NCBI GenBank assembly: GCA_016699935.1
Contig: CP064992.1
Location: forward strand, 270,001 to 302,000
From: Candidatus Saccharimonadota bacterium
Lineage (GTDB): Bacteria > Patescibacteriota > Saccharimonadia > Saccharimonadales > UBA4665
DNA: 32,000 nt
Direction of reading: 5' to 3'
The translations under genes were made by a program, and so were the position numbers. Positions within the stretch are counted from its first letter, which is position 1, and the number at the start of each line of letters is the position of its first letter. The notes beneath the pieces were generated by a model. It did not search any database. It was not told the DNA's origin and was given only the letters and a program-made list of their open reading frames with translations. Below, piece by piece: positions 2,373 through 26,630 of this stretch.

Positions 2373-2989
2373 TTAATATTCGTTAGCGAGTTCGCGCTTT
2401 AAAATATCCATCATCTTCTTATTTTCTTCATAATCAGCGACAAATTCGAGGTATCTGTCGCTATTCGAAACAGCTCAAGTATACGCTCCGGCCGCATCCA
2501 CGCCTCTTGGGCGCGTTGCAAATAATACGGCAAACTAGAGTATTCATAGGTGCGCCATGTGCGCGGATTGAGGTGAATATATCGAGTAATATGTTGCAAG
2601 TAGCTGTCATCACTGACGAGTGAGGAACGGAATCGTGACTCGAAAAGCGAACCAGTACGTTTATACTTTTGGTTGAAATAACGACTGTAACTAGTCATCA
2701 GGCTTTGCATGAAACTGGTTAATGCGCCTTGCTGGTACTGATACGCTAGTAAATGAAAGTGGTTCGGCATGACACAGAACGCTACCAAATCGACCTTGTG
2801 GTAAAAATTTGGATAAGAAATACCGTACGGATCTTTCGCTTCTTCGGGAGAAAGATATCTGGCAAACAGTTTTAAAAATGTCAAATAATCTTGTTCGTCG
2901 ATAAAAATCCGCATTTTGCTGTTGCCACGGGCATAAACGTGGTAGAAACTATCTGGCGCATCAAGACGGATAACATTCCTTCTGGGCAT
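2373..2989 (-). CDS. Y1 (HUH) transposase, REP-associated tyrosine transposase / IS200-like (one frame disruption near 2463)
   Basis: FYHVYARGN, the HUH motif MPNHFHLL and the catalytic-Tyr helix YLQHITRYIHLNP are present. The start is placed at the internal ATG at 2989, because the ORF-track extension to 3127 reads through the palindrome. The C-terminus continues as FRNSDRYLEFVADYEENKKMMDILKRELANEY* after a 1-nt correction. This matches the C-terminus of the paralog at 15590..16269. Confidence 0.8.
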
Positions 2990-3011
2990 ATAGCTACTAT
3001 ACCACAAAAGA

Positions 3012-3042
3012 CCACCTTGGGAGGACTGTCCTCCCAAGGTGG
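3012..3042. repeat. perfect palindrome, 15-bp arms (CCACCTTGGGAGGAC t GTCCTCCCAAGGTGG)
   Basis: Read directly from the sequence. It lies 22 nt upstream of the transposase ATG and 46 nt upstream of the divergent pilB ATG. Confidence 0.9.
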
Positions 3043-3087
3043 GGATGAGGCTGGGATTGCGGTTGTGGTTTTGGTATACTGTTAGGA

Positions 3088-4907
3088 ATGCGTGTATCAG
3101 ATAGTTTGGTGGAGAAGCTACTGGCATCGACTGGCAAGTTTAGCGATGAACAGCTTGAGGCCCTCCGAAAACAAGAAAAAAGCGAGAAAAAACCCCTACA
3201 AGATGTCGCGGTTAGCTCAAACACACTCACCGAAAAAGAGCTGACCCAGTTGTATGCTGAAGAAATTGATGTGCCTTTGTGGAATTTGCGGCGCGAGACC
3301 TTCCTCGAGAGATAGTCGAACTAATACCTGAACGTGTCGCTCGGCAACACCGAGCAATTGCCTTCCAGACCGGTGAAGACGGTGTGGTGTTTATTGCGAT
3401 GGAAGATCCAGACGATGTACCAGCGATAAGTTTTCTGCAAAAACAGCTCGGAAAACCAGTGCGCGTTCACATTGCCACTACGACAACAATTCAGAGCGCG
3501 CTTGATTTATATAGCGGCGACGCCAGCAATGTTGGAAGTGAGATTGAACGAGTCATTGCTATACAGGAAAAGGATGATGCGGATGAGGTGGTCGATAAAG
3601 CAGACGTGGCCGAGGACTCACCCATTGCTCAAACGGTTAACCTCGTCATTGACTATGGGGTGAAAAATGGTGCAAGCGACATTCACATTGAACCACGCGA
3701 GAACTTCGTTGTGGTGCGGTACCGCGTGGATGGCATTTTGCGTGAGGTCAATAAATTGCCGCGCAAGGTGCTCGGCGCACTGGTTTCGCGAATAAAAATT
3801 CTCGCTAACCTAAAGATAGATGAGCACCGTGCGCCACAAGACGGGCGTTTTAAAATAGTAGTAAATAACCATGTTTACGCGCTGCGCGTCTCGACGCTAC
3901 CCATCGTGGACGGCGAGAAAGTCGTCATGCGTATCCTCGATGAGTCGAGCAAGCCTGCTACGCTAGAGGAACTCGGTTATTGGGGAGGTGCTCTAGAGGC
4001 TGTACAGCAGGCAATCGTCCAACCACACGGCATGGTACTTGTGACTGGCCCGACTGGCTCAGGTAAGTCAACGAGCTTGTTTAGTGTACTCAGTATGCTC
4101 AACAGCCCCGGCGTGAATATCAGCACGGTTGAGGATCCAGTCGAGTACCGTATTTTCGGTGCTAACCAGACACAGGTAAACCCACTGGCCGGCATGACGT
4201 TTAGCGGCGGCCTGCGTGCCTTGCTCCGGCAAGATCCCAACATCATCATGGTCGGTGAAATCCGCGACGGCGAAACCGCTGACCTTGCAGTCCAAGCGGC
4301 GCTGACAGGACACCTTGTATTCAGCACTCTGCATACCAACAACGCTGCGACCTGCCTACCCCGTTTGCTTGACATGAAAATTGAGCCGTTCCTCATCGCC
4401 AGTACCGTACGAATCATAATCGGCCAGCGTTTGGTTCGAAGGTTGTGTACTGATTGCCGTGAGACCTACGAACCTGACGCAGCTCACCAAGAAAAAATGT
4501 ATAAAATATTCCAGCTTAAAGGAGAAGCATTTAAACGACTTCACGAGCTTGAGGCGAACGCTCTCGCAGCGGGCATTGGTGCGACCAATCCAAGCAAGAC
4601 TAACACTGCCGACCCTAAGACTTTCGGCACTTCAGGCAACGCAATCGTACGACTCTGGCGCGCCCATGAAGACGGCTGTAATACATGCAATCACACTGGT
4701 TACCATGGCCGGATAGGTATATACGAGGTATTGCGCAATACCGATGATATCCAGCAGCTCATTGTCAGTAATGCCACCAGTGAAAAACTACAGGAACAAG
4801 CGCTCCAAGACGGTATGCTTACCATGCAGACTGACGGCCTCGTGAAAGCACTGCGTGGGCAAACATCTATAGAAGAAATCTTGCGCGTAACCGCCGAGAA
4901 AGCTTAG
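3088..4907 (+). CDS. pilB: type IV pilus assembly ATPase PilB (GspE family); one frame disruption at 3276-3278
   Basis: The N-terminal T2SSE_N-like fragment (3088..3315) joins 3279..4907 as ...EEIDVPFVEFAARDLPREIVE... if one T is restored. Walker A GPTGSGKST, the Asp/His boxes and a C-terminal CxxC...C..C cluster are present. Confidence 0.9.
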
Positions 4908-9966: not shown

Positions 9967-10635
9967 TTATGACTTCACGTCAGGCTGATCGTCGTTCGTT
10001 TGCTGATTGGAAGCAACTAATTGAACTTCTTCGTTGGCACGGGCTTGATACTGCTGGTAATCAAGAAACTTTTGGTAATCCGCGGCATCGACTGTGACGC
10101 TATGAGATTGCTGACCTTCTTTTCTAATAGAAGTCGGTAGTCGGCCACTTTCGAGCGCGGCAATGAAGTTTTCGTGTGCTTCTATCAACACTTTCGATGC
10201 TGCGTCTGGATTTGGGATGGCCGAAAATGTATAGTTTGCCTGTTCGCCTGGTGTTTCAACAGTAACCGCACCAAACCCTAGCAATGACCCAAAAAAGTCC
10301 TTGCGCACAGACACATCCGCCACGTGCTGCAAGCTGAGCTGCGATATTTTGCTCCCAAATAAACTTGGTTGAAGCACCTGCAGAACTGCTTCATCGGTCA
10401 CGACGAACTGTTCCTGCGATTTCAGCCACGCTGGTATAGTTGTTGCAATTGCTGCGAGTGCGCTAAAGAAACCTGCGCTAGCAAGAATTATAGATCGGTA
10501 TTGATTGGTGGCACTCTCTGCGTCAGCCGTTGGTGCCGTAAATGCAAGCGCCGATGCCATAATAGCAATCACTGCAAAAAACCCGACAAACCATATCGAC
10601 ACATACACAAACCAGTGGTGTCGAAACACTCCCAA
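9967..10635 (-). CDS. membrane protein with bacterial PH (YdbS/YdbT-like) domain
   Basis: Two N-terminal TM helices are followed by FVVTDEAVLQV...VSVRKDFFGSLLGFGAVTVETPG...FSAIPNP, the typical bPH_2 pattern. Confidence 0.55.
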   Translation of the reverse strand: MGVFRHHWFVYVSIWFVGFFAVIAIMASALAFTAPTADAESATNQYRSIILASAGFFSALAAIATTIPAWLKSQEQFVVTDEAVLQVLQPSLFGSKISQLSLQHVADVSVRKDFFGSLLGFGAVTVETPGEQANYTFSAIPNPDAASKVLIEAHENFIAALESGRLPTSIRKEGQQSHSVTVDAADYQKFLDYQQYQARANEEVQLVASNQQTNDDQPDVKS

Positions 10636-10710
10636 ATTTCCTCGTCTTCGCCTATTGGAAGACGCTTATGGAGGCGTTCATTCACTTTTGGGTCTATTGC
10701 CATAGGTGCA

Positions 10711-11750
10711 TTATACCAAACTTGTCTGGGAAGTGCCTTTTTCCTCTGTTGGTTTCACCCCAAGATGCTTATAGGCCTTTTGGGTGACTTTCCGGCCACG
10801 AGGTGTACGTTCTAGCAACCCAATCTGTAAAGGTACGGTTCGATAAAATCTTCGATAGTGCTTCGCTCTTCAGCAGTCATAGCGGCAATAGTCTCGACGC
10901 CAACCGGTCCACCTGCATAATTTTCTATAATGGCTTCTAATATCATCCGATCGGCCGGGTCCAAGCCCAACTCGTCAATCTCGAGTAACTCCAGCGCTTT
11001 TGTGCTGATTTCTGTGTCGACAATCCCATCTCCGTTGACATCGGCATAGTCACGAACACGCTTCAGTAACCTGTTTGCTATTCGCGGTGTCAGTCGACTT
11101 CGCTCGGCTAGCTTGAGTGCTGCCGCCGAATCGATTTTGACCCCAAAATACCAGAAGCCCGTTTTATTATGTCTTGCACTTCAGCGTGAGTATAAAACTC
11201 TAGTCTATGGACATGACCAAATCGATCGCGAAGTGGCGCAGCAAGGGCACCAGTACGTGTTGTCGCCCCTATGAGGGTAAACTTTGGCAAATCGAGTCGC
11301 ATGCTACGAGCGCTCGGGCCTTTGCCGAGCATAATGTCTAGCTTGTAATCTTCCATCGCCGAATACAGCACTTCTTCAACGGTGCGATGTAGCCGATGAA
11401 TTTCATCTATGAAAAGGATGTCGCCGTCCTGCAAGTTCGTCAGCAAACTGGCAAGATCACCGGCACGTTCGATAGCTGGACCGGAGGTTATGCGAATCTG
11501 GGCGCCCATTTCATTGGCAATCACGCTTGCCATGGTGGTCTTACCTAGTCCCGGCGGGCCGTAGAGCAGAACATGGTCGAGTGGTTCACCGCGTTTTTGG
11601 CAGCTGTTATCGCTAGCTGAATGTTTTTCTTCAGCCGTTCTTGGCCAATATAGTTGGCAAAATCATGCGGTCGCAGCTTCAGCTCAAACTCAACCTCATC
11701 TGCCGAGTCATCATCTACCACAGCCGTTTTACAATCCGCTCAATTGCCAT
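10711..11750 (-). CDS. ruvB: Holliday junction branch migration helicase RuvB; four frame disruptions
   Basis: The core ORF is 11108..11533 ([18 protein letters not shown]). The upstream frames give [15 protein letters not shown]...[44 protein letters not shown]. The downstream frames give ...[35 protein letters not shown]...[28 protein letters not shown]...*. The joins fall at the runs 11727-11730, 11594-11598, 11141-11144 and 10829-10831. Confidence 0.95.
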
Positions 11751-15589: not shown

Positions 15590-16269
15590 ATGCCCGGGAA
15601 AAACATTATCAAACAATATGCACCAGATAGTTACTATCACATATACACAAGGGTGTAAATAAAAACATCACCTTTGACGGCGAGACTGATTTTAATGTAT
15701 TTATCGGTTTATTTAAGCGCTATCTTTCGACGCAATCGGTAAAAGCAATACCAGGCATACCTATCCCTCTTTCAATAATCGTCTTGAACTTCTCTCGTAT
15801 GCCTTAATGCCAAACCATATACATCTTTTTGTTTACCAGCACGACGAATACGCCATACGTGACTTCATGCGAGCTTTACTTACCAGCTATTGTATGCAAT
15901 ATAATAAAGTCCACAAGAGTCGGCCCACTTTTCCAAAGTCGCTACCGCGCTAGTTTGATAGGTGATGATGCATATCTCCAGCATATTTCACGTTATATCC
16001 ATCTGAACCCCAGCGACTGGAAAACTTCCGATAAAACAAGTCTCGATTTTTACCTCGGAAAAAGGTACGCCGACTGGATTAATACAGAACGAGTTATGGA
16101 GCACTTTTCGACAGCCGAAGCCTACATGAAATTCTTGGAGGATTATGAAGATGTCAACAAAATGTACGATGAGATAAAGTGGGATCTCGCCACCATAGAA
16201 GACTCCAACAACGAAGACGAGGCACCATATGAGATGTACGTGCGTCAAGGACGGACCCTGACGCAGTGA
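15590..16269 (+). CDS. Y1 (HUH) transposase, RAYT/IS200-like paralog; at least 3 frame disruptions (possibly a pseudogene)
   Basis: Reading across frames gives MPGKNIIKQYAPDSYYHIYTRG..., the HUH motif LMPNHIHLF, ...RVGPLFQSRYRASLIGDDAYLQHISRYIHLNPSDW... and ...AEAYMKFLEDYEDVNKMYDEIKWDLA. By eye it is about 45-50% identical to the 2373..2989 product. The last 9 codons are encoded by the 3' repeat unit. Confidence 0.7.
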
Positions 16270-17260: not shown

Positions 17261-18062
17261 TTACGGCAAGGCCGCTGCTCTAATAATATCTAGCATTTTG
17301 CCATGAACTATTCCGTTGCATGATACGAGTAAGCCATTTGCGAATTCGTCATAGCGACGCTCTTTGCCGAATATGTCACTTGAAACTCCTCCTGCCTCAC
17401 TCACCAGAAGCGAAACTGCGGCACTATCCCAAGGAGATCCGTATAGTAAGAATCCTGCTACAAAATTACCCCTCGCAACCTGTCTTGCTCCGTACACGGC
17501 GGAAATAAAGTTGAACCCACGCACATCGGCTGTATTCAGCCTGGTGATAATATCTCCGATGGAAACGGCTGGTTGAAGACCCCAAACTCCACTCCCTGAG
17601 AAATATACTGCCCAGTCAAATCTTTCGACTGGCTTGTACGGAGCGGCGTCTTGCCGCAGAACGCCCGCCGTTCTTTGTGGCAAACATGAGCTCATCGAGA
17701 TAGGGGTCATATGTTACTGAAACGTACGGCTGTCCGTCTTTTCTATGGACCAGTGCAATTGAAAAGGTACTCACAGGAATCCCGCAGCTGAACGGGCTTG
17801 TGCCGTCTATCGGGTCGACAACCCAGAGTAGCTCACGGTGCGGCTCGAAAGATGCTTCTTCACCAAGCACACCGTATGCTGGAAACTCTTTTTTTACGCG
17901 CTCAATAACGAGCGCATTGATTTGGGTATCAGCGACCGTCAGTGGCGTTAAATCTTGTTTGTGAGTAATGGCAAGTTCGTCAGAGCGAAAGTAGTGGCGC
18001 ATAATCGCGCCCGCTTCAAGTGCTAAAGATTTTGCAAATTGAAGCTCTTTTTCATGAGCCAT
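17261..18062 (-). CDS. inositol monophosphatase family protein (SuhB-like); one frame disruption near 17660-17673
   Basis: Fragment 17616..18062 carries EEASFEP...WVVDPIDGTSPF. Fragment 17261..17710 carries WDSAAVSLLVSEAGGVSSDIFG. These are the hallmark IMPase motifs. Confidence 0.85.
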
Positions 18063-18066
18063 TGGG

Positions 18067-18787
18067 CTACCCTAGAAGGCTTTCGGATATGTCGAAGTTG
18101 ACATGCGTATTTGCGACATCGTCGCAATCATCTAGAGCATCCATAAGACGCATGATCTTGCCGGCCGTATCACGATCGGTTATTTCAATGGTGGTATTTG
18201 GCACATAGGTAAGCGCCGCCTCCGTAATCTCAAAGCCACGTGCTTTCAAGCCATCTCGCACGCGAGCAAGCTCGGTATCGACAGTGTAAACTTCGCTAAC
18301 ATCACCCGTATCCTGCACGTCTTCCGCGCCAGCATCAAGCGCTTCGAGCATGAAATCATCTCCGATGGCTTTCACGACAATTAGCCCTTTGCGAGCAAAC
18401 TGAAATGCCACTGCGCCCTTTTCGGCGATGTTACCACCATGTTTACTAAACGCAAGGCGAACTTCTGGATACGTTCGGTTTAAGTTATCCGTCGCAACCT
18501 CAACCAGTATGGCGACGCCCCTGGGCCATAGCCCTCGTATAACACTTCCTGCAATTCTGCCGCAGATTTGTCTTTGATTCGGTCGATAGCCCGCTGGATA
18601 TTGGCATGCGGCATATTGGCAATTTTGCTTTATCTATAGCGAGTCGTAGCGCAAAGTTAGTTTCAGGGTCGGTGCCACTGCGCGCCGCAATTGCGATGGC
18701 ATTGCCGAGTTTAGTAAAAACAGCCCCCGCGCGGCATCTTTCGCACCTTTTTCGTTTTATCGTAGACCACTTGCTATGACCAGACAT
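18067..18787 (-). CDS. yebC: YebC/PmpR family DNA-binding regulator; several frame disruptions
   Basis: The N-terminus [48 protein letters not shown] is followed, in other frames, by ...[14 protein letters not shown]...YEGYGPGGVAILVE...[17 protein letters not shown]..., and then by the intact C-terminal fragment 18067..18411. Confidence 0.9.
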
Positions 18788-22236: not shown

Positions 22237-22357
22237 AGCAAAAGTAATCAGAACAAACTAAAAATAATGTTCAAGATTCAATGAACAATTCAAGAAAAAA
22301 GACCTGCCTATGGCAGAGCTTTATTTCTTGGAGGGCCACAGTAAACGCTATCGGAAA

Positions 22358-22723
22358 TCAAAGACCTGTCGCTACAAAAGCAGGAAGATCGTCACCCGTT
22401 AAGCTCCATGCTTCGTATTTCTGTACCGGCTTAACTTGTAGCACATAGCCGTTTTTAAACGCGAGTGTTAAAACGTATTCGTTGGTTAATTCTATGCTGG
22501 TCAAATTAGTATGAAGGAGCTCTAGTGTCGGTTTGAGCGTGGAAACGTCGTTCGGATCTATAGTAGCTTTCTTAGTCTTAGTTTGAAGCTGAAATGGTAC
22601 TTCAATTTGTAAATTGGCATATTTTCCTTCACGCCTTTCACCACCAAGAAAGTTTAGGTCAACTTGATAACTAAAGCGCACGTAGTTAACTTCGGCACCG
22701 ACTAACTTCTTTAATTCATCCAT
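22358..22723 (-). CDS. hypothetical protein (121 aa)
   Basis: Intact ORF with no frame breaks. It ends ...KYEAWSLTGDD..., which loosely resembles small DUF6188-type proteins; this is a weak assignment. It is embedded among the tRNA-Lys-derived repeat fragments. Confidence 0.45.
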   Translation of the reverse strand: MDELKKLVGAEVNYVRFSYQVDLNFLGGERREGKYANLQIEVPFQLQTKTKKATIDPNDVSTLKPTLELLHTNLTSIELTNEYVLTLAFKNGYVLQVKPVQKYEAWSLTGDDLPAFVATGL

Positions 22724-22743
22724 TCGCTCAGTATAGCAAACAA

Positions 22744-22769
22744 AAAGACTCCCCTATTCAGAAGTCTTT
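22744..22769 (-). terminator. hairpin T1 following tRNA-like module 1
   Basis: AAAGACT / AGTCTTT (7-bp stem, 12-nt loop), flanked by an A-run on + and therefore a T-run on -. Confidence 0.4.
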
Positions 22770-22783
22770 CATAGTGCTTATGA

Positions 22784-22994
22784 TTGAGGGCCCAGTGAGA
22801 CAGCGCACTTCGTGCTTTTCCGCTGTGGCGTGCATCGCTACGCTCTTCCCTGTGATGCTCGATGAATTCAATCAAGCTTGATTCAACTTCGCTTCTCGTT
22901 CACCGGAATAAATTCCTGCGCGCGTTCTCGCTCCACCGAACTCACGACACAATGCATATTTTCTTCGAAAATCTGCAGTGCCGTAAGCCCAAGC
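22784..22994 (-). ncRNA. tRNA-Lys-3'-end-derived structured module 1 (candidate ncRNA, family unknown; ends approximate)
   Basis: A copy of the tRNA 3' end at 22784-22799 (1 mismatch) and CGAACTCACGAC at 22937-22948 are split by 137 nt. A two-tier hairpin spans 22941-22987, followed by the conserved CCCAAGC. Confidence 0.3.
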
Positions 22995-23013
22995 ATCACG
23001 AGACTGACCAAAT

Positions 23014-23042
23014 AAAAAGACCTATCTGCGACAGGTCTTTTT
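23014..23042 (-). terminator. hairpin T2 following tRNA-like module 2
   Basis: AAAAAGACCT / AGGTCTTTTT is a perfect 10-bp stem with a 9-nt loop, giving the shape of a bidirectional terminator. Confidence 0.55.
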
Positions 23043-23045
23043 ATT

Positions 23046-23179
23046 TGGAGGGCCCAGTGAGGCCTCGCCTGTGGCTCGCGCACTGCGCTGTCCTCGGAGC
23101 TAGCTCCTGTGGGCAGCTTCGTTGGCGTCGAACTCACGACATTTCAATTTGCTCACGCAAATTGGTCGTGAGCCCAAGC
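23046..23179 (-). ncRNA. tRNA-Lys-3'-end-derived structured module 2 (candidate ncRNA, family unknown; ends approximate)
   Basis: An exact copy of the tRNA 3' end at 23046-23061 and CGAACTCACGAC at 23129-23140 are split by 67 nt. A two-tier hairpin spans 23133-23172 with a GUGA loop in the tRNA sense, followed by the conserved CCCAAGC. Confidence 0.3.
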
Positions 23180-23199
23180 CCAGCTGAACCTTACCAATC

Positions 23200-23226
23200 A
23201 AAAAGCTCCCAAAACGGGAGCTTTTT
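23200..23226 (-). terminator. hairpin T3 immediately after tRNA-Lys
   Basis: AAAAAGCTCCC / GGGAGCTTTTT is a perfect 11-bp stem with a 5-nt loop. It lies 3 nt beyond the tRNA CCA end. Confidence 0.6.
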
Positions 23227-23229
23227 GAT

Positions 23230-23305
23230 TGGAGGGCCCAGTGAGACTCGAACTCACGACACGAGGCTTAAAAGGCCTCTGCTCTACCGACTGAGCTATG
23301 GGCCC
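23230..23305 (-). tRNA. tRNA-Lys (anticodon UUU), CCA encoded
   Basis: The reverse complement folds as a canonical cloverleaf: GGGCCCA ta GCTC agtcggta GAGC a GAGGC cuUUUaa GCCTC gtgtc GTGAG ttcgagt CTCAC TGGGCCC t CCA. Confidence 0.95.
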
Positions 23306-23542
23306 GCGCTCGGGTAATGAGACAAAACCTCGCGGTTTTTTCTCATCGCTCCGGGCGAAAAGCGCGGTTTTCGCTCGGGCTGCTCTTTTTCCCTCTCAGG
23401 GCTTGTCGTAGAAAGGGAAATTAACTCCTTACATTATCTATATTTCGGTCAAAAAGTCAACGTCTGCTTACGACTAGCCTCTTTGTTGCAAATGTAACTA
23501 ATGTTTGCTTTTTATATTAATCGTACTTACATTTATATTTAA

Positions 23543-23551
23543 TGCTATAAT
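23543..23551 (+). promoter_or_regulatory. candidate extended -10 promoter element for glnA
   Basis: TGcTATAAT lies 26 nt upstream of the glnA ATG in an AT-rich leader. The RBS GGAGG is at 23568-23572. Confidence 0.35.
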
Positions 23552-23576
23552 ACTTAGTGTAAATAATGGAGGTTTT

Positions 23577-25002
23577 ATGGACGAAAGTGTAAAATTAAAA
23601 AACTTTCTAGAGCTCGATTATGAAACAATCGAGGAAATGAACCTGGCAGCACGGGCCATTACCGACCCCAAGGATGCCCGAGAGAAACACATCGCCTACC
23701 TAGAGGAGACCAAGCAACTCAAAGCGGTGACAGTTTGCTTTAGTGACATCGAAGGTCGTTTGCATATGCTGGATTACGATCGTAAGTTTTCCTCGCCTCG
23801 CTCGATAATCTAACCTTTGATGGCTCGTCAGTGCGAGGACTCAGCGAGCAAAGCGAATCTGATCTACGTCTGCAAGTTGACTGGACGAGTATTACCTTTG
23901 TGCCAGCCGATATATTTGGCTCCGGGAAACTAATCATTTTTGCAAATGTTTGCGACCGTGAACTACAGCCATATGCGACAGATTTTCGAGCGCAGTTACA
24001 GTCATATACCACAAAGCTTAAGGCTAGTGATGGCCTTGAGGCTTTCATGGCGCCTGAGATCGAAGGCTTTTTGCTACAAGGTGTCGACGCCGAACAGCAT
24101 TATGATGGACGCAAGGGGTTTGAGCTTGTTTCGACCGGAGGGTATTTCCATTCTCTACCACTTGACGAGTTACGTCGTTTTATAGACGCGACCGCCGAAG
24201 CCCAAAGAGCAATGGGCTTTGGCAATGAAAAAGATCACCCAGAGGTTGCACCATCGCAATTTGAAATTAATTATCGCTACACAGACATCGTGCGCGCTTG
24301 TGACCAAGCACAACTGTACAAACTCGTTTGCCGGCAGATTGCTATGAATATGGGCATGACCGCAACGTTTCTGCCAAAACCAATTCAGGGTGTCAATGGC
24401 AATGGCATGCACACCAATCTTTCTCTGGCAAAAATGGCAAAAATCTATTTTATGATGCGGCTGGCCAGGATAGACTTTCCAAAATCGGCTGGGATTTTGT
24501 AGGCAATATATTACATCGTGCAAGTGATATATGTTTGGTGCTCAACTCAAGCGTCAATGCTTACCGCCGACTCGACCCAGCTTACGAAGCACCAAATCAA
24601 ATAAAAGTTTCGGCCAATGACCGAAGTTCAATGATTCGTATACCTTTTGGCAATGAAAAAACAGCTCGCATAGAAGTACGCTCCGTGGCACCCGATGCTA
24701 ACCCCTATCTAGTTGCCTTTACGCTGCTTAGGACTGGGCTAGACGGCAAACCACCGCGAGTTGATACGAGCAAACGACCTCGTATCCGTGTACTACCAGA
24801 CACCATCCACGACGCCATTCGTCTATATAAATCTAGCGACTACGTCTCGAAGCTACTAGGTGAGGACTGCAAACAGAAATATCTCGCACCAAAACAAGCT
24901 GTCGCAAACCGTAGTGGCATTGAACTTGGCAGTCGTATCAAATCGGAAGAAATCATCCACCACCACGAAGTCACCAACCAGTTTTTGTGGAACACATTCT
25001 AA
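23577..25002 (+). CDS. glnA: glutamine synthetase; two frame disruptions (23787-23790, 24430-24434)
   Basis: Fragments 23577..23813, 23831..24502 and 24328..25002 join as ...DYDRKFFLASLDNLTFDGSSVRG... and ...NGNGMHTNLSLAKNGKNLFYDAAG.... The GS motifs FDGSSVRG, APEIEGFL, HPEVAPSQFEINY, NGNGMH and SMIRIP are present. Confidence 0.9.
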
Positions 25003-25119: not shown

Positions 25120-26630
25120 TTAGCCTAGGCTGGAGCGGAGGACCCCCATAGTTTCGATGAGGTCTCGGAGAGTTTCGCTTTCATCTCGTAGATTGAGAGC
25201 TGCCGAACTGAGCTTGCGATGCGACTCGTGTTTTTCTGCGACAGGCTCACATCGTACGCCTAAAATTCGCTCAGTTTCTTCAACATCTTCAACCACTTGC
25301 TTCCACGCTGGATTGTTGATAGCTAGCATTGCCAGATTGTGACGGTTCAGGTAGCGTCCAGCGTCGATAACGTCATGCGCAAGGTGCGGATAGAGGCTGA
25401 GCAGTGTGTCGAGCTCAGGTTTCGTCAAAGATTTTAGTGCTCGACCTAGACCAATAAATTCTGGGGGCACACCCACTGAGTAAAACGAACCAGTAAAGGT
25501 AATCGCCCGCGGTAAAGACTGGCCTTCGAGGCTGCGCGTATACGAAACGAGGCCAATGTGTTGATGCCGGTCGCGACGGCGTGGGAAGGCAGCAAAAACT
25601 GGCTGCACGTCTCTTACGAGCTCTCCAATCGTACTCTTATATAGCTTTGCTGCATCATGCGCAATGCGCGTGAGGAGCTTCGCATCTTTTGTCGCAATAG
25701 TAAGTGGCTGTGCTTTTGGCAGCTCGCGTTCGAGCTGGGATATTGCCCGCTTCACGGCCGACTGGGGGTGATCGTAACGGAAAGAAGACTGCAACGTTAC
25801 CGTACGAACTCCTGGCAATTCAGCAATAAACCTATCGATCGATGTCGGTGTCAGACCACCACGAAATGGCAGACTACCTGATCCGGTAATCGGGAAGACC
25901 GGGATGTCACTTTTTGCGGCAAATGTATAGAGCTCGGCGAGACCAAGCTTGTTTCCTATCCGGGCCGCCAAAAACCCTGATGACAACGCGGAATCAGAAC
26001 AGGCCAAAAAGCCCCGAATGTAGTCAGGCTTATGACCGAAGTGCTGTTTGTGCAGATCCACATACTCTTCGAGCAATCGCCCCATAGCCATCTGCCCTTC
26101 AGCATTTTCGACGAGGGAATAATCTCAAGATAGTCACTATTGGCTTTTTGGCTGGCTGTAAAATCCTCGGATTTAAAATGTGCCAGTTTCTCAAACAGTT
26201 TTTGCATATCCATAAGCTGACTAGCACGTTCGGTCATGGGAAGAATCACCTCAAACAGCGGGCGCTCATGAAACCCAATATCCCTGGCGAAATCTTCACT
26301 ACTAAGCAAAACGGTCATGGCTTGCAGCAAATTGTACCCACGCTCCTGCCAGATATTTGGAATACGAAAGGTGAGAAACTTGTCCAGACCGAGTTGGTGC
26401 TTAGCAAAATATTCATGATGTTGCGAAAAAAGTCTATCTATTACAGCCGCATCTGCGTGTTTGCCTTCCCAGTCCCACATGTACTCGCTCACCCCCATAT
26501 CTTTAAAGCACGTCACCGCTTCTAGAATCTCTTGGTGAGCGCCGATGAATGGTCGCCCGGCTGCGTCCCAGTATGGTGCCGCCGCATTGTCTGGGTGCTG
26601 GGTGGCCATGGTTGCCGGAATATGCCTCAC
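25120..26630 (-). CDS. ppcA: archaeal-type phosphoenolpyruvate carboxylase (PepcA family); one frame disruption at 26115-26117
   Basis: The N-terminal IPATMATQHPDN signature is present. Fragments 25956..26630 and 25120..26091 join as ...DYLEIIPLVENAEGQMAMGRLLEEY.... The GTG start overlaps the aminotransferase stop (GTGA). Confidence 0.85.

Follow-up and report, generated by a model that had tools for sequence, protein, structure and literature searches.

What are pieces of a tRNA gene doing strung out behind that same gene? The question is raised by a 32,000-nucleotide (nt) stretch of DNA from a Candidatus Saccharimonadota bacterium (GenBank assembly GCA_016699935.1, contig CP064992.1, positions 270,001 to 302,000), here called the window and numbered from its first letter. 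Its only tRNA gene, by both ARAGORN and Rfam, encodes tRNA-Lys(UUU). Downstream of this gene lie two modules in tandem, each combining segments of the tRNA 3' half with an unrelated, folded interior. The modules belong to a family of folded elements, conserved in Saccharibacteria and hitherto undescribed. Their layout parallels that of the rtT repeat of Escherichia coli. We give about an even chance to the reading that the two modules (types A2 and A1) are rtT-like structured elements of the tRNA trailer, with a frame matched to the tRNA and cores under structural selection.

The original prediction, read from the letters of the DNA, rested on two recurring blocks, and both recur at the positions claimed. 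The 16-nt tRNA 3' end TGGAGGGCCCAGTGAG occurs exactly at 23230-23245 and 23046-23061, and with one mismatch at 22784-22799. The 12-nt block CGAACTCACGAC, from the T-loop, T-stem and variable region, occurs exactly at 23249-23260, 23129-23140 and 22937-22948. Both lie well above shuffle expectation: 0.01 and 0.15 matches are expected, respectively, and three copies were reached in 0/100 shuffles for either block. The coordinates agree with the spacing of 67 nt and 137 nt proposed for the copies, and they support both the placement of the extra sequence at the T-loop and the framing of the modules by tRNA-Lys 3' sequence. The modules were said to lack D and anticodon arms; indeed, ARAGORN and the Rfam tRNA model RF00005 detect the genuine tRNA alone.

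The units have a common order. Read in the tRNA sense, a palindrome running from CCA to TGG is followed by five elements: I, an inverted copy of tRNA nt ~40-76, decayed to varying degrees, which extends backwards from the acceptor 3' strand to ~40; a small loop or hairpin; D2a, which repeats nt ~40-57 directly; a structured, non-tRNA core of 60-135 nt; and D2b, which repeats nt 56/59-76 directly, CCA included. The core, between D2a and D2b, takes the position of the T-loop. The tRNA-Lys(UUU) gene is the source of all the tRNA-derived blocks in the window and itself constitutes copy D1. Every unit lies immediately 3' of a tRNA gene and shares its orientation. The D2b blocks are 18-21 nt long in 26 module/tRNA pairs, starting at G59 in most A units (18 nt), at A58 in type C (19 nt) and at C56 in type B. 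In well-preserved units the I copies are highly significant, with 21/24 matches (locus L046, tRNA-Lys) and 22/24 matches (L046, tRNA-Arg); those of the window have decayed to GGGCTCACGAC and GGGCTTACGGC.

Recognition of I changes how several predicted features are understood. The two-tier hairpins, with outer stems CTCACGAC/GTCGTGAG and their inner stems, are real, but the outer stem is I pairing with D2a, an inverted tRNA copy that had gone unseen. The shared CCCAAGC, although present, is simply a piece of the degenerate inverted T-arm copy. The 7-bp stem proposed as acceptor-like, GGGCUCA/UGGGCCC, is not conserved; in relatives the sequence is GAACUCA, simply the inverted T-arm copy, which pairs in the hairpin formed by I and D2a (hairpin 1). 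Nor is the GNRA loop conserved, since relatives have GCUA, CCUA, GAA and others. It had also been missed that the two window modules are different subtypes, A2 (module 2) and A1 (module 1). RNAfold gives module 2 a free energy of -64.1 kcal/mol (z = -4.2); for module 1, z = -1.2. The private insertion of module 1 (Table 1) contains the palindrome AATCAAGCTTGATT.

Each module was predicted to be followed by an A5-stem-T5 hairpin. All three hairpins, T3, T2 and T1, are present, but T1 lacks the A-tract and is an ordinary terminator-like hairpin, similar to the one directly 3' of the tRNA in the module-less locus L019. T3 looks like a bidirectional terminator. T2 is the centre of 41-nt arms, 73% complementary, that link the module 2 3' block to the module 1 inverted copy. 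Where a palindromic hairpin follows the tRNA or a module, the CCA pairs with a downstream TGG; CCA is encoded in the tRNA-Lys gene (23230-23305), whose discriminator, position 73, is U.

How widespread are such units? A 24-nt piece of the tRNA was found in 45 GTDB species genomes, nearly all of them Saccharibacteria. Among 43 usable Saccharibacteria genome loci (those with enough sequence downstream of tRNA-Lys; loci are given L numbers), about half carry a module 170-200 nt after the tRNA. The typical unit follows a terminator-like palindrome, spans ~135-160 nt, and ends again in the tRNA 3' end. A scan for two 3' ends 160-190 nt apart added 13 metagenome loci, and modules also stand behind tRNA-Lys(CUU) and tRNA-Arg(UCG). 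Their interiors define four types: A1 (window module 1, L025, L003 and others), A2 (window module 2, L027 and others), B, and C. Stack order varies by species, with A2 followed by A1 in the window and B by A2 in L039. The literature searched yielded nothing on such elements in Saccharibacteria.

Two loci show less regular arrangements. L026 contains an orphan type-B module (3650-3890), 3 kb from tRNA-Lys, preceded by the tRNA-end-like GGTCGACCTCCA and a palindromic hairpin and ending in a different tRNA-like end, AGTCCCACTCGGCCCCCA; ARAGORN detects no tRNA there. L046 contains a second, partial type-C core (10550-10640) after its tRNA-Arg module, without a tRNA 3' block, so stacks exist behind tRNA-Arg too.

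Within the family, the frame follows the adjacent tRNA and the core does not. The tRNA-derived pieces track their neighbour across at least seven T-arm variants. Matching is seen for tRNA-Lys(UUU), for four T-stem variants of tRNA-Lys(CUU), and for tRNA-Arg(UCG), and the diagonal dominates the score matrix. Where the tRNA-Lys(CUU) gene has the T-stem GTGAG, CCGGG, GTGGG or GAGGG, all three blocks match the local tRNA, and the match extends to the variable region and to an unusual TTCAATT loop. Behind tRNA-Arg(UCG), I (GGATTCGAACCGCCGAC), D2a (GTCGCGGTTCGG) and D2b (ATCCGTCCGGGTG) are all Arg-derived, yet the core is homologous to that of type C units behind tRNA-Lys; more Arg cases exist. D2b reproduces the host T-loop variants at positions 57 and 60 in 7/7 type-B modules. 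Opposite host G57 or U60, I often has a wobble-compatible base (T or G), not the exact complement. Save for scattered single changes, the blocks match the host tRNA at every locus.

Conversely, the core types (A1, A2, B, C) are common to different tRNAs. R1, a covariance model built from type-B cores, detects tRNA-Lys(CUU) modules that it was not trained on, with different T-stems, at E = 1e-14 to 1e-18. The tRNA-Lys(CUU) loci are syntenic (murB, tRNA-Arg, tRNA-Lys(CUU)), so the simplest reading is an orthologous core whose frame co-evolved with the tRNA in place. With the frame matched to the adjacent tRNA and the core orthologous, selection appears to act on pairing or identity with the 3' half of the tRNA.

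The folds are conserved as well. As a control for covariation, 3' partner columns were shifted by 1-3 positions, and 500 shuffles were made. For the type B core (9 sequences), 91.5% of cells are paired (36-46% in the shifted control) and double changes occur in 31/45 pairs (8-12 in the control); the observed values were reached in 0/500 shuffles. The central hairpin of type A (15 sequences, both window modules included) has 83.6% of cells paired, against 25-46% in the control; 48 double-change cells, against 3-12; and a covariation score of 0.67, against 0.07-0.16, which 0/500 shuffles reached. Thus the central claim of the original prediction, that the fold is retained while the sequence diverges, holds for both window modules. 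The prediction took this as selection on RNA structure rather than decay of att (attachment-site) duplicates; the units may still have originated through insertion or duplication at the 3' end of the tRNA, which is a synteny breakpoint. Within type B, the helix GUGAG/CUCAC is supported, and one triple compensation occurs in L006. For type A, a closing helix resembling the T-stem, GUGRAG/CUCAC, was considered and rejected: GGUGUAG persists behind T-stems CCCUC or CCGUC, so the motif belongs to the core.

Which strand might act as RNA? Hairpin 1 contains 39 G-U pairs in the tRNA sense and 13 in the antisense, and the sense is the more stable in 16/21. For type B cores the sense is more stable in 11/12, and one G-U pair is invariant in 9/9. 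Transcription in the tRNA sense is plausible.

Does the family have a known relative? Across 22600-23450, Rfam cmscan at the gathering threshold and at E<=10 yields only the tRNA and noise, in accord with the original prediction, which matched the modules to no RNA family; on 12 related loci, Rfam (version 15) at gathering and relaxed thresholds likewise reports the tRNA alone. The closest parallel lies in the 178-bp repeats of the E. coli tyrT locus (rtT/RttR, RF00391), one of which, rttR, is annotated in the K-12 record as a small RNA directly after tyrV. Each tyrT unit closes with tRNA-Tyr nt 58-76, AATCCTTCCCCCACCACCA (19 nt, from A58). Inside it, T-arm and acceptor recur in inverted form as GGGGAAGGATGAGAAGCTTCGA, with 19/22 matches; next come CCAAGGTTCGA, which repeats the 5' T-arm directly, and a 67-nt hairpin-rich core. 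In the fold of the unit, the inverted copy pairs with the 3' block. Like the modules, the tyrT repeats lie directly 3' of the tRNA, in the same orientation and in tandem, and they combine a tRNA 3' end of ~19 nt that includes CCA with an inverted copy, a 5' T-arm copy, and a core in the T-loop. The layout of rtT is therefore the same as that of the modules.

The likeness has its bounds. The rtT units have no terminator palindrome between tRNA and unit and carry a ~60-nt spacer, whereas the Saccharibacteria modules stand behind several tRNAs and have several core types. Place and tRNA end agree with RF00391; model score and core homology do not. The modules thus resemble rtT in layout, yet are not members of that Rfam family.

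The tRNA-like domain of transfer-messenger RNA (tmRNA) and YrlA, a bacterial Y-RNA-like molecule, resemble the modules in joining the T-stem and acceptor 3' strand and an NCCA end to non-tRNA helices. However, the modules have their extra helices inside the T-loop; their 5' partner is one continuous inverted copy rather than acceptor 5' and T-stem 5' strands; and they have no Rfam match, tag open reading frame (ORF), or adjacent Ro-type gene. ARAGORN finds no tmRNA in the window. A tRNA pseudogene was rejected, ARAGORN and RF00005 finding only the genuine tRNA and no further cloverleaf; so was a split or intron-bearing tRNA half, given that a full tRNA is adjacent, that a 5' half is absent and that bacteria are not known to have the archaeal splicing endonuclease.

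How might an rtT-like trailer element work? We infer transcription, processing and function as follows. The unit RNA would arise by read-through from the tRNA promoter and be trimmed in the course of tRNA-end processing. This has been reported for E. coli rtT; Bösl and Kersten, in 1991, reportedly found the rtT RNA to be processed from the tRNA transcript of the tyrT operon. In the single strand, I would pair with D2a, forming hairpin 1, and could pair with D2b. Such pairing would close a multi-helix junction, presenting the core and leaving a tRNA-like NCCA tail. Any role would presumably be tied to the adjacent tRNA, for example control of maturation, a decoy, or a splint.

Several observations weigh against this reading. 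A strong palindromic terminator-like hairpin separates the tRNA from each module, and no promoter consensus was found between terminator and module; module transcription is therefore unproven. The original prediction read the modules in the tRNA sense, and for the A-type cores this strand is not established. The type A central hairpin has 4 G-U and 8 A-C cells, hence no sense preference, and the antisense of type A cores, those of the window, folds as stably as the sense. The wobble bias of the inverted copy, 24 to 6 over sequences, falls to 6 to 6 over distinct changes. Absence of modules from about half of the loci implies that they are dispensable. The RF00391 model finds no match in the window at any threshold used, and nhmmer with a hidden Markov model of 18 A-type cores finds none in the E. 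coli tyrT locus at E<=100. Finally, synteny breaks at the tRNA 3' end between near-identical strains, and genes are inserted in or between units (DUF6188 in the window; L015 and L041); both features are island-like.

The island-like features lead to the strongest rival, that the units are remnants of integrative elements, or miniature non-autonomous ones, targeting the T-loop-to-3'-end segment of tRNA genes. Each integration would add a new 3' end and terminator and displace the old end outward, and the hairpins would be an att-proximal arm. The comparison is with tycheposons, integrase-carrying islands beside Prochlorococcus tRNA genes, or with accretion of cis-mobilizable elements (CIMEs) stacked at one att site. 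T-loop-class tyrosine integrases cross over inside the T-loop, and the direct repeat of 18-21 nt begins there. Like tycheposon and CIME att repeats, the modules are tRNA 3' direct repeats with outward stacking and variable genes from the tRNA end. Stack orders differ between the window and L039, and genes are bounded by 3'-end copies in the window (22329-22337), L015 and L041. In a published island model, incoming elements push older ones outward and leave partial tRNAs (bioRxiv 10.1101/2020.12.28.424599). Homology between strains with identical MurB, too, stops exactly at the tRNA end. Of these, L150 has a module and L153 has none, but the whole downstream region differs between them as well.

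The arrangement of these loci can be described more fully. L150, L151 and L152 share with L153 an identical MurB and homology that ends exactly at the tRNA-Lys(CUU) 3' end; one version then has a type-B module and other genes, and the other version is module-less. Single genes lie between a module and a further 3'-end copy at ~180-1030 and ~190-800 downstream of tRNA-Lys in L015 and L041, respectively, and at 22329-22723 in the window; the A1 core that follows the L015 gene consists of its 3' half only. An argument from an ancestral flank, based on CATAAGCA after the distal copy, was weakened when the motif proved to look like part of a promoter or 5' untranslated region before downstream genes.

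A direct repeat of the tRNA 3' segment does bound the inserted DNA. An integrase beside the bounded DNA, and a free or viral form with an attP identity block, were not found. Pfam scans of the ORFs revealed no integrase in the 32-kb window, and a crude motif search for one was also empty. A survey of 92 ORFs of at least 220 amino acids (aa) within 6 kb downstream of tRNA-Lys, in the loci surveyed, has no integrase family among its 25 most frequent Pfam families. IMG/VR has 0 contigs with the 18-nt tRNA end or with the A or B core motif, the C motif giving only chance matches in coding sequence, and phage GenBank records contain tRNA matches only, with no attP counterpart. Structure argues in the same direction. 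Unlike tycheposon and CIME repeats, the units are only 150-260 bp, with a covarying fold. A core of 60-135 nt splits what should be a contiguous attR core, and the att model predicts neither the inverted copy nor the second direct copy (nt 40-57) that track each tRNA variant. Moreover, type-B cores are orthologous at the syntenic tRNA-Lys(CUU) locus, where the frame changes with the tRNA, which points to evolution in place and not re-insertion. The island model thus explains stacking, cassettes and the synteny break, but it does not account for an inverted copy, a T-arm that is split or a fold that is conserved, and we consider it unlikely.

A second rival dispenses with RNA. The units would be DNA-level palindromes, a direct-inverted-direct copy of the 3' part of the tRNA made when the template was switched at the terminator hairpin and in the variable/anticodon-stem region. 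Hairpin-templated gene conversion would keep the copies alike, and the core hairpins would be tolerated or be single-stranded DNA sites. The known rearrangement of this kind is tandem inversion duplication, in which template switching at quasi-palindromes produces a direct-inverted-direct array. The order is alike: D1, hairpin, inverted copy, hairpin and D2, and hairpins mark the junctions. The layout of D1, terminator, I, small loop and D2, the palindrome centre of type B at tRNA nt ~40-44, and the 41-nt arms centred on T2 all fit. So do the nearly uniform Watson-Crick pairing of A-type core helices, without strand bias, and the dispensability of the units. However, tandem inversion duplication leaves unexplained the shared non-tRNA cores, their covariation, and their upkeep over many species. 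Covariation in core helices unrelated to the tRNA needs selection on the fold. The invariant G-U pair and the sense bias of type B, and the same core types behind Arg and Lys, also speak against it, and the T or G kept in I opposite host G57/U60 fits selection for pairing better than copying. On this evidence a purely DNA-level origin is quite improbable.

A retro-process primed or templated by tRNA, in which each cycle copies the 3' block from the host tRNA up to the T-loop as at a retroviral primer-binding site, would explain why that block always matches, bar scattered single changes, and would suit its extent (the last 18 nt, G59-A76, in most A-type units; 19 nt in type C and E. coli rtT), but it is very improbable: no reverse transcriptase is present in the window ORFs or among the Pfam families listed near the loci, the type B block starts at C56, past position 58, orthologous cores at a syntenic locus speak against repeated re-synthesis, and E. 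coli tRNA is not known to carry m1A58.

Table 1. Positions and strands of the tRNA-Lys gene, the two modules and associated features in the window (I, inverted copy; D2a and D2b, direct copies).
Feature	Position	Strand	Remarks
tRNA-Lys(UUU), encoded CCA	23230-23305	-	ARAGORN; Rfam RF00005, 72 bits
T3, perfect palindrome, 17-nt arms (A-tract, stem, T-tract)	23194-23232	.	starts at tRNA CCA, ends TGG
Module 2, type A2	23046-23193	-	homologues L027, L028, L039, L044, L022
Module 2 I, degenerate	23165-23193	-	inner part GGGCTCACGAC, 23165-23175
Module 2 small hairpin	23141-23164	-	
Module 2 D2a, GTCGTGAGTTCGA	23128-23140	-	
Module 2 core	23062-23127	-	
Module 2 central hairpin Pa, AGCUGCCCACAGGAGCUAGCUCCGAGGACAGCG	23086-23118	-	covarying core helix common to types A1, A2
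Module 2 D2b	23046-23061	-	
T2, perfect palindromic terminator-like hairpin	23008-23048	.	starts at module 2 CCA
Module 1, type A1	22784-23007	-	closest homologue L025
Module 1 I	22980-23007	-	inner part GGGCTTACGGC, 22980-22990
Module 1 small hairpin	22949-22979	-	
Module 1 D2a	22937-22948	-	
Module 1 core	22802-22936	-	
69-nt insertion private to window	22834-22902	-	inside 3' side of module 1 central hairpin, vs L025
Module 1 D2b, 18 nt	22784-22801	-	one mismatch in CCA
T1, terminator-like hairpin, no A-tract	22743-22770	-	after module 1
DUF6188 ORF, 121 aa	22358-22723	-	Pfam 3.8e-19; between module 1 and partial 3'-end copy
Partial fourth copy of tRNA 3' end, ACTGTGGCCCTCCA	22303-22345	-	with GGCCCTCCA at 22329-22337; downstream of DUF6188 ORF

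Beyond the modules themselves, the neighbouring genes of the window are ordinary chromosomal ones: RecA, type IV pilus, RuvABC, ComEC, GlnA and others. The DUF6188 protein, which may be encoded by a cassette, is identical to IPL68_01890 of a Candidatus Saccharibacteria bacterium, and a homologue adjoins the module in L063 also. After the partial fourth 3'-end copy comes a terminator-like hairpin (22303-22317). Upstream, a predicted tRNA promoter, TTGACT-16-GATAAT, lies at 23433-23460, and the ~120-nt leader from promoter to tRNA contains, at 23331-23385, two hairpins and the direct repeat CGCGGTTTT.

Two further features of the window stand apart from the modules. Five conserved genes are split into two or three ORFs: GlnA (23505-25002), an archaeal-type PEP carboxylase (25120-26630), YebC (18067-18787), an IMPase-like gene (17261-18062) and RuvB (11108-11533). 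The cause is either sequencing frameshifts or widespread pseudogenisation. There are also two IS200/RAYT-like Y1 transposase ORFs, at 2411-3127 (minus strand) and 15829-16269 (plus strand); one has a Pfam Y1_Tnp match (5.9e-11) and the other is a fragment recognised by eye alone. Enzymes of this type act on DNA hairpins, but no tie to the modules was found.

What would an rtT-like family in Saccharibacteria mean? The long enigmatic rtT repeat of E. coli gains comparative context: the same layout is found in a distant phylum with reduced genomes, where it stands behind several tRNAs and its cores covary. The rule that each frame is a copy of its neighbouring tRNA is simple, and any genome can be searched for it. 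The family also bears on how tRNA 3' ends turn into recombination hot-spots. A bolder proposal, tentative and on balance doubtful, is that retargetable tRNA-trailer RNAs form a single widespread but unrecognised class, of which rtT and the Saccharibacteria modules are two branches. Frame matching, which would be continual, would then result from selection for pairing with the 3' half or from tRNA-templated copying, and the exchangeable cores would sense or recruit something that controls the maturation, repair or decay of the adjacent tRNA. If true, this would amount to an RNA system, regulatory or protective, that is encoded in cis and specific to one tRNA. Useless DNA is seldom retained in the reduced genomes of Saccharibacteria, so that the conservation of a 150-nt fold behind tRNA-Lys and tRNA-Arg suggests a testable function linked to the tRNA.

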